Source: a virus (taxonomy: Duplodnaviria > Caudoviricetes). From it: a DNA stretch of 64,000 nt. The notes beneath the pieces are model-generated. The model had not been told where the DNA came from and did not search any database. It saw only the letters and a program-made list of their open reading frames with translations. Made by a program: the position numbers and the translations under genes. The DNA lies in the IMG/VR virus record IMGVR_UViG_3300028186_000155, one strand, 5' to 3'. Below are positions 20,175 through 20,911 of the stretch, piece after piece. Positions within the stretch are counted from its first letter, which is position 1. Every line of letters begins with the position of its first letter.

Positions 20175-20483
20175 CTAGCGAGTCCAATTGAGTTCGAGTT
20201 TATAACCCAGTTTTTCCGCAATGATGATCAGCACTTCGAGGTCGGCATTGACCAGCGATTCGTGTTCATCATCAGCGAAATCCGGGTGGAAATACGGCAT
20301 GAGTTCCCGGCACAGAATGCCACCGATATTCAGGTAGGTTTTCTGCACGTAACGGCGTAGGCATTTGGCGCTGGTTTCTTTCTGGCCTTTGCACTGCGGG
20401 CGCGCCTGCCGGGACAATTCGTTGATTATGATGGCGTATAGTTCTGCCTTCATAGTGTTTACAGTTGTTGTCATGCTCGACAT
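20175..20483 (-). CDS. Small protein with XRE/HTH-like C-terminus
   Basis: C-terminal DLEVLIIIAEKLGYKLEL. True start may be the downstream MKAELY, just after an ACTGTAAA motif. Confidence 0.55.
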   Translation of the reverse strand: MSSMTTTVNTMKAELYAIIINELSRQARPQCKGQKETSAKCLRRYVQKTYLNIGGILCRELMPYFHPDFADDEHESLVNADLEVLIIIAEKLGYKLELNWTR

Positions 20484-20911
20484 AACCCCTTTTCCAGTTT
20501 GCGCTCAACCTTCACTTGGAACGTGATGCTACGCTCTGCACGCGCAGGCAGCATGGAGAAAGCGAGGAAAACGTTACCGAGGTGTGCACGCCCAACCTTG
20601 TGGGCCTTACGGCGACCGCGCAGCCAGATGAATTTGATATCGCCGTCGTCTTTGTCCATCAGGCGCACCAGACAACGGTTTTTATCATCGTGAATTTCGT
20701 ATTTGGTGCAGGCCTGAACGTTGACGTTTTTCAGTTCTTCCACCAGCCCTTGGTGCTGCATGTTGGCCACGAATGCTTGGCACTCGGCAACCATTTGTTG
20801 CGGCGACACTTTGAACAGGCTTTCGGTCAAAGATTCTTTGAGTTGCGCGCTGATTCTTTCTTGCAGCATGCGCACCGTTTGACGTACAACGATCCGATCA
20901 ATTGGATGCAT
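20471..20911 (-). CDS. Stand-alone tail-sheath C-terminal-domain-like protein
   Basis: PIDRIVVRQTVRML...PARAERSIT parallels sheath DRINVRRL...PARSINYIT (T4 gp18, recalled). Confidence 0.65.
   Translation of the reverse strand: MHPIDRIVVRQTVRMLQERISAQLKESLTESLFKVSPQQMVAECQAFVANMQHQGLVEELKNVNVQACTKYEIHDDKNRCLVRLMDKDDGDIKFIWLRGRRKAHKVGRAHLGNVFLAFSMLPARAERSITFQVKVERKLEKGLCRA

Follow-up and report, generated by a model that had tools for sequence, protein, structure and literature searches.

A free-standing protein family derived from the tail-sheath handshake domain is encoded beside sbcD in Lu11-like jumbo phages

Contractile tails, tailocins and type VI secretion sheaths all have the handshake domain as their universal connector. 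To our knowledge, two kinds have so far been described in free-standing form: gp25/TssE, with which sheath growth starts, and IraD, a regulator of RpoS turnover. In sheaths themselves, the N-terminal arm, the C-terminal arm and the two-stranded domain I sheet of a neighbouring ring make up a four-stranded 'handshake' (PMC11915804). A comparable exchange of strands lets gp25 start sheath growth (PMC6088184), and tail terminators share this mechanism with gp25 (PMC6088184; PMC11915804). An EPR motif has been described for the gp25/TssE fold, and IraD provides a precedent for this fold leaving the tail (PMC6546054). Here we describe P0001, a protein encoded by an open reading frame (ORF) of 146 amino acids (aa) plus stop, with an ATG start, at 20471-20911 on the minus strand of a 64,000-nt stretch (the window) of the IMG/VR virus record IMGVR_UViG_3300028186_000155. 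The genome measures 314,224 bp and has direct terminal repeats; the window is the reverse complement of its initial 63.9 kb, and the nearest cultured relatives of the source phage are the Pseudomonas jumbo phages HRDY3 and Lu11. With little room for doubt, P0001 is a diverged, free-standing homologue of the C-terminal (handshake, domain I) domain of the tail sheath. Together with its relatives it forms a new, narrow family of handshake-fold proteins that derive from the sheath and are free-standing, and this identity is secure.

The family was collected by an exhaustive HMMER search of 1.84 billion cluster representatives, which at E<=0.001 returned 12 further proteins, 10 of them 125-155 aa in length; with three close relatives from a word-indexed search included, the family alignment comprised 14 sequences. 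The initial annotation had identified P0001 as a stand-alone sheath C-terminal domain and proposed a hidden Markov model (HMM) search against that family as a check. As a single sequence, P0001 stayed below threshold: PF17482 (Phage_sheath_1C) matched residues 5-83 with 19.4 bits and E 0.0011, under the gathering cut-off of 26.9, and was the Pfam family that the largest number of family members matched (4/14 at E<=1). The tail sheath family phrog_23 of the PHROGs scored E 0.22, which is not significant. The best result of a PDB sequence search was a weak alignment of the T4-type sheath 9ev2 to residues 3-60 (E 0.76), BLASTP of P0001 against the source phage's own sheath returned nothing, and a five-sequence P0001 profile gave a suggestive E of 0.054 against a single sheath sequence.

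Profile-profile comparison, in contrast, was clear. We built a sheath profile from the C-terminal 122 residues of 15 sequences of the source phage's own sheath clade, and hhalign matched it to the P0001 family with a probability of 96%, an E value of 3.6e-9 and a score of 56.4. The match spans 104 columns, from sheath-profile position 8 to 114 of 125, and is collinear over the whole domain. The same comparison scored 16.7 with a reversed sheath profile, at most 17.0 in 30 column shuffles and at most 29.5 in 30 shuffles of 8-column blocks. When the profiles were split, the N-terminal helices (E 7.5e-8) and the C-terminal hairpin (E 5.6e-5) matched separately and in order, whereas crossed comparisons of N-terminal with C-terminal halves gave no hhalign match. 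The family's hairpin also aligned to the second sheath paralogue of the genome (E 9e-4). The match, its controls and the separately matching halves thus confirm the stand-alone sheath domain, and the two stretches quoted in the initial annotation are exactly the N-terminal-helix block and the C-terminal-hairpin block of the profile alignment.

Structure prediction led to the same assignment. With four sequences the AlphaFold2 model was unusable, at a predicted local distance difference test (pLDDT) score of 46, and the 14-sequence alignment was required; with it, mean pLDDT was 80 and the predicted template modelling score 0.68. The model has helices at residues 3-27, 37-53 and 100-110 and strands at 60-67, 70-76, 79-85, 91-97, 114-120 and 129-135. 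Its fold is of the sheath domain I type and is also of the gp25 type; the outcome that had been named as telling against the proposal, a fold unrelated to the sheath C-terminal domain, did not materialise. The PF17482 domain, which is domain I of the R-pyocin, Mu, phi812 and phiKZ sheaths and the C-terminal domain of T4 gp18, has the same fold. Foldseek comparison of the model with the PDB returned nothing significant, and a complex prediction of P0001 with full-length sheath scored 0.00, which has no bearing either way.

P0001 starts at the first helix of the sheath C-terminal domain, and an N-terminal extension or arm is absent across the family. Its first two helices (residues 3-53; 20753..20905, minus strand like all features of the gene given here) are homologous, by hhalign and AlphaFold2, to the first two of the sheath domain, an RINVRR-type helix and the next one, and evolve fast, with 8-43% identity across the family. 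They are followed by an extra β-strand (residues 60-67; 20711..20734), seen in the model and lacking a counterpart in the sheath alignment, and by a strand with the sequence I-H-D-x-K-N-R (residues 70-79; 20675..20704), a remnant of V-C-D-x-R-N-N in sheaths. In place of the sheath loop comes a lineage-specific insert (residues 80-112; 20576..20674) made up of the strands at 79-85 and 91-97 and an arginine-rich helix, RGRRKAHKVGR (residues 98-110; 20582..20620), the most conserved segment of the family. A β-hairpin with a P..P/A turn (residues 113-135; 20507..20575), homologous by hhalign to the final hairpin of the sheath domain, presumably corresponds to the two-stranded sheet that accepts the arms of neighbouring subunits. 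The chain ends in a short, unconserved tail with pLDDT <50 (residues 136-146; 20474..20506). Across the family, 0-11 unconserved residues follow the last strand, and there is no conserved donor arm.

The initial annotation had described a conserved loop swapped out for a foreign insert of about 40 aa. The loop after the motif is indeed replaced, and the CDxxNN motif itself is eroded rather than lost: I73, D75, K77 and N78 align by hhalign with the sheath I, D, R and N, so that I-x-D-x-K-N is kept, and beyond these residues nothing of the conserved C-D-x-x-N-N-x-P-x-x-I loop is left, its place being taken by residues 80-111. The insert is likewise present, not as a clean 40-residue swap but as a net gain of some 30-35 residues, with about 32 residues (80-111) where the sheath has about 10 and the strand at 60-67 preceding them. 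No donor for a 'foreign' insert was found.

This insert carries most of the conservation. R100, R101, A103 and R108 are invariant in the family, and D75, C80, V82, L97, K105 and G107 are nearly so. Mean column entropy is 0.99 in the basic helix (98-110) and 1.32 in the first inserted strand (79-85), against 2.0-2.7 in the sheath-derived helices, the inter-helix loop and the hairpin. Members whose core (residues 68-112) is 73-88% identical to that of P0001 share only 12-43% in their N-terminal helices and 17-47% in their hairpins. Residues 98-112 have a net charge of +6, and the isoelectric point (pI) lies between 8.5 and 11 in 13/14 members. The insert, as the constrained part, is presumably the working part of the protein, and the sheath-like parts behave as a scaffold. 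Since the arginine-rich element, which sheaths do not have, is the sole strongly conserved part, P0001 has probably been re-used outside the tail.

The same pattern bears on whether the gene does anything at all. Being sheath-derived, small and fast-evolving, P0001 could in principle be a functionless, decaying duplicate of the 3' end of a sheath gene. We consider this very improbable: the frame is intact in every locus examined, with proteins down to 19-22% identity, the core is conserved around its four invariant and six near-invariant residues, and the gene has its own ribosome-binding site, a Shine-Dalgarno-like GGGAGG (20921..20926, minus strand) read directly from the sequence, with a 9-nt spacer to the ATG. 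The start is overlapped by 14 nt by a 117-aa ORF upstream.

P0001 lies within a long, co-directional and tightly packed gene string that runs from an SbcC-like ATPase (25178-27487) to an SbcD/Mre11-like nuclease (19122..20165, minus strand; Pfam Metallophos E 2e-10, PHROG 100 E 3e-36, and synteny), its constant downstream neighbour. In 13/13 related loci that reach far enough, namely two reference phages, five metagenomic contigs and six IMG/VR genomes (one being Lu11 again), the P0001-family gene either directly precedes sbcD or is separated from it by a single ORF, and three divergent loci show an 8-nt overlap between its stop and the start of sbcD. A 102-aa ORF between P0001 and sbcD (20175..20483, minus strand) is present in one sub-lineage only, and upstream of the family gene the related loci have recurrent small LysM proteins and a helix-turn-helix (HTH) protein. 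The homologues fall into 12 further library clusters of 125-157 aa with 22-57% identity, none of them fused. In the library and IMG/VR searches the family was seen only in Lu11-like jumbo phages, the IMG/VR occurrences being confined to contigs of 80-314 kb, five of which measure 280-314 kb; tblastn of two remote members against other reference phages found nothing. Two long proteins from the exhaustive search, P0013 (979 aa) and P0016 (1759 aa), carry unrelated Pfam domains; their matches are probably spurious or very remote, and we do not count them as fused forms.

We favour exaptation, at a probability of roughly 40%: P0001 would use the handshake fold as a scaffold and its basic insert to bind either nucleic acid or an acidic partner, in or near the SbcCD module. 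The sheath fold would have been removed from the tail to serve solely as a scaffold, with the invariant basic insert, L-R-G-R-R-x-A-x-K-x-G-R, and the hairpin preceding it as the working surface. This surface would bind a polyanionic partner, most likely DNA or RNA, or else an acidic protein surface, and P0001 would act with or near the phage SbcCD (Mre11/Rad50-type) recombination nuclease, while the fast-changing helices and hairpin would face a variable partner or nothing. The lack of fused relatives, the constrained insert, the basic pI, the constant position upstream of sbcD, the distance from the tail genes and the gene's absence from this position in PaBG and Erwinia phage Y3 all favour this arrangement. 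Several points weigh against it. Shared synteny in a single phage clade may reflect descent and not function; at loci where SbcD keeps 62-87% identity, the P0001 protein has 26-58%, and a slower pace would be expected of a cofactor dedicated to so conserved an enzyme; both the acceptor hairpin and the RINVRR-type helix can still be recognised, which makes a role directed at sheath or tube possible; and a second sheath-derived fragment in the same island, described below, hints at a tail-related theme. Should P0001 bind DNA or the nuclease, DNA metabolism would plainly have recruited a structural fold.

Set beside the described systems, P0001 differs from each. Sheaths are proteins of 500-700 aa with a PF04984 domain, an N-terminal arm and a C-terminal arm, all of which P0001 lacks; relative to the sheath domain it has one extra strand, and the C-D-x-x-N-N-x-P loop has given way to a remnant, a hairpin and a basic helix. 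Its gene, moreover, sits among recombination genes and not among tail genes. Because it has neither core domain nor arms, P0001 is not a sheath. Nor is it a member of the gp25/TssE/P2 gpW initiators (PF04965; PDB 6gj1_D, 2ia7), for want of a profile match, an EPR motif and a baseplate context: 0/14 family members match PF04965 (GPW_gp25) at E<=1, hhalign of the family against the source phage's own gp25-like protein gave E 0.28 and no sequence similarity, the EPR motif occurs in no family member, and the gene lies in the sbcC-sbcD interval, outside the baseplate cluster. IraD, the Escherichia coli ClpXP anti-adaptor (PDB 6od1_B), is bacterial, keeps an EPRI motif and has no basic insert; it shows no detectable sequence relation to the P0001 family, and for its partner RssB no link to this locus is indicated. 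The P0001 family thus represents a third free-standing kind of handshake protein, derived from the sheath and not from gp25, stripped of its arms, furnished with a new invariant basic element and fixed beside an Mre11-type nuclease gene in one jumbo-phage clade.

The retained hairpin could also serve a function closer to the tail. The initial annotation had suggested that a lone sheath domain could cap or poison sheath polymerisation, and the structural logic of this idea is sound and mechanistically coherent: as P0001 keeps the acceptor hairpin and lacks both donor arms, it could accept strands but never donate them or propagate the lattice. Such an acceptor-only domain would take up, by strand addition, the N- and C-terminal arms of free sheath subunits, and might cap growing sheaths, prevent premature polysheath formation, or serve one of the two sheath paralogues as an additional initiator or terminator. 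Homology and fold both identify a handshake domain, gp25 and the tail terminators work by this very exchange (PMC6088184; PMC11915804), and strand addition, consisting largely of backbone contacts, would be compatible with fast sequence change. The source phage also has two full-length tail-sheath paralogues (genome coordinates 72591-74228 and 93962-95512; 546 and 530 aa, 34% mutual identity), to the second of which the final hairpin aligns. Two sheath proteins are the hallmark of the 'Lupandier' group, which includes HRDY3/Lu11-type phages, and the pair found here matches this two-sheath trait, as reported for the PaBG/Lu11 group (PMC7412058).

Several observations nevertheless make sheath modulation rather unlikely. 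The C-terminal region of the sheath is 93-94% identical between phages whose P0001 proteins are 55-58% identical, the sheath-derived parts of P0001 evolve fastest, with the hairpin among its least conserved segments, and the invariant basic insert would be left without a role. The two inserted strands may, in addition, fill the acceptor site in cis. By position, the gene belongs to the sbcC-sbcD string; the two sheath genes are 29-50 kb away, and about 218 kb separate it from a bona fide gp25-like gene (genome coordinates 261524-261772; 30.2 bits against a cut-off of 27.2), so that a proper gene of the gp25 kind is already present. PaBG and Erwinia phage Y3, which belong to a group reported to have two sheath proteins (PMC7412058), have no P0001 counterpart at the corresponding position upstream of sbcD. 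If P0001 does bind sheath, it would be a factor by which phages naturally cap sheaths or prevent polysheath, and it could guide efforts to control contractile nanomachines. This outcome and recruitment into DNA metabolism are both testable, because the gene is carried by Lu11, as Lu11_0112, and by HRDY3, where its product is XDJ15189, and both phages have named Pseudomonas hosts.

A second fragment of the sheath C-terminal domain occurs in the sbcC-sbcD interval. A 61-aa ORF (23178-23363, minus strand) encodes a near-copy of the sheath C-D-x-x-N-N-x-P-x-D-I hairpin, matching the sheath profile by hhalign with 96% probability and E 1.3e-9, and with 54% identity over 28 residues. This protein keeps the C-D-x-x-N-N-x-P-x-x-I hairpin that P0001 has lost, and no similarity between the two was found. 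We considered whether they might be halves of one split domain and rejected the idea, as both hairpin strands have counterparts within P0001 itself; each protein was derived separately. In related loci, the hairpin of the 61-aa protein heads longer proteins of 132-182 aa, one of them with an HTH_37 domain.

In most comparisons, the P0001 gene evolves faster than any other gene nearby; in one genome, for example, neighbouring genes are 54-87% identical and the P0001 gene 38%. Such diversification would be explained if the protein took part in a conflict, as a sheath look-alike made before virion assembly that occupies a host sensor or blocks a rival contractile machine. Its targets might be an immune sensor of sheath-type folds, or a tailocin, a type VI secretion system, or a co-infecting or resident myophage. 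A fixed core with variable surfaces, restriction to one clade, and a location, shared with the 61-aa hairpin copy, in a variable island of small ORFs would all suit a decoy or inhibitor. This role is wholly conjectural and in our judgement quite unlikely: fast evolution is also compatible with relaxed constraint on a scaffold, no known sensor of sheath proteins was identified, and no PADLOC model matched, these models covering defence and not anti-defence. A broader version, in which jumbo phages repeatedly detach the handshake fold as a fast-evolving soluble weapon or decoy and P0001 and the 61-aa protein form an island of virion-part mimics, is distinctly improbable. As part of the same joint reading, and with equally poor odds, P0001 would be an acceptor-only module with an invariant arginine-rich clamp, made alongside the recombination nuclease, that jams a rival or blinds a sensor.

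Other proteins show some resemblance to P0001. In a 145-aa ORF of the same island (22198-22635, minus strand), the C-terminal third consists of two strands followed by W-F-R-S-R-R-L-A-H and aligns with P0001 residues 70-110; in the small family of this protein, F-R-S-x-R-L-A is invariant. The hhalign E value against P0001 is 0.003-0.005 at a probability of just 7-11%, and the two may share a hairpin-plus-basic-helix module or resemble each other by chance. P0013, noted above, contains five tandem repeats of about 150 aa, each faintly like the P0001 core (Y-D-L-x-x-D-K-x-x-C ... K-A-A-K-I-K), and ends in a ribosomal uL15-type domain; its summed E value is 1.9e-7, that of a single repeat 0.021. 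Three uncharacterised PaBG proteins of 120-154 aa in BFVD (S5VM52, S5VZG2 and S5VV27) resemble the P0001 model in Foldseek, with E values of 3e-5 to 0.03 and probabilities of 0.97-1.0, and on these model comparisons the P0001-type fold may be multi-copy in PaBG.

Downstream of P0001, a promoter-like motif, ACTGTAAA (20458..20465, minus strand), starts 6 nt past the stop codon, an arrangement by which P0001 ends a transcription unit. The nearest copy upstream of the gene is at 31041-31048. The Lu11 annotation names ACTGTAAA a 'putative middle/late promoter'. With 1.2 copies expected, the window contains 18 of the motif (A)AACTGTAAA[CT]A; genome-wide there are 50, nearly always co-oriented with the local genes. 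We discarded ACTGTAAA as a clue to timing: the 50 copies include one about 1.7 kb upstream of sheath gene 1 and do not separate early from late genes, and with such a genome-wide spread the motif does not fix when P0001 is expressed.

The protein encoded at 21584-22204 (minus strand), whose HRDY3 and Lu11 homologues are annotated 'endolysin', combines an N-terminal domain like the peptidyl-tRNA hydrolase PTH2 (22.6 bits, cut-off 23; PHROG 5822 E 3e-49) with a C-terminal LysM domain, and no lytic domain was detected in it with Pfam or PHROG. Just downstream of sbcD, a 426-aa protein rich in lysine, alanine and proline (17724-19004, minus strand), which matched no Pfam or PHROG family, carries KKPAA-type repeats and a triplicated segment, A-P-V-K-K-G-P-G-R-P-x-G-S-K-N-K-P-K.
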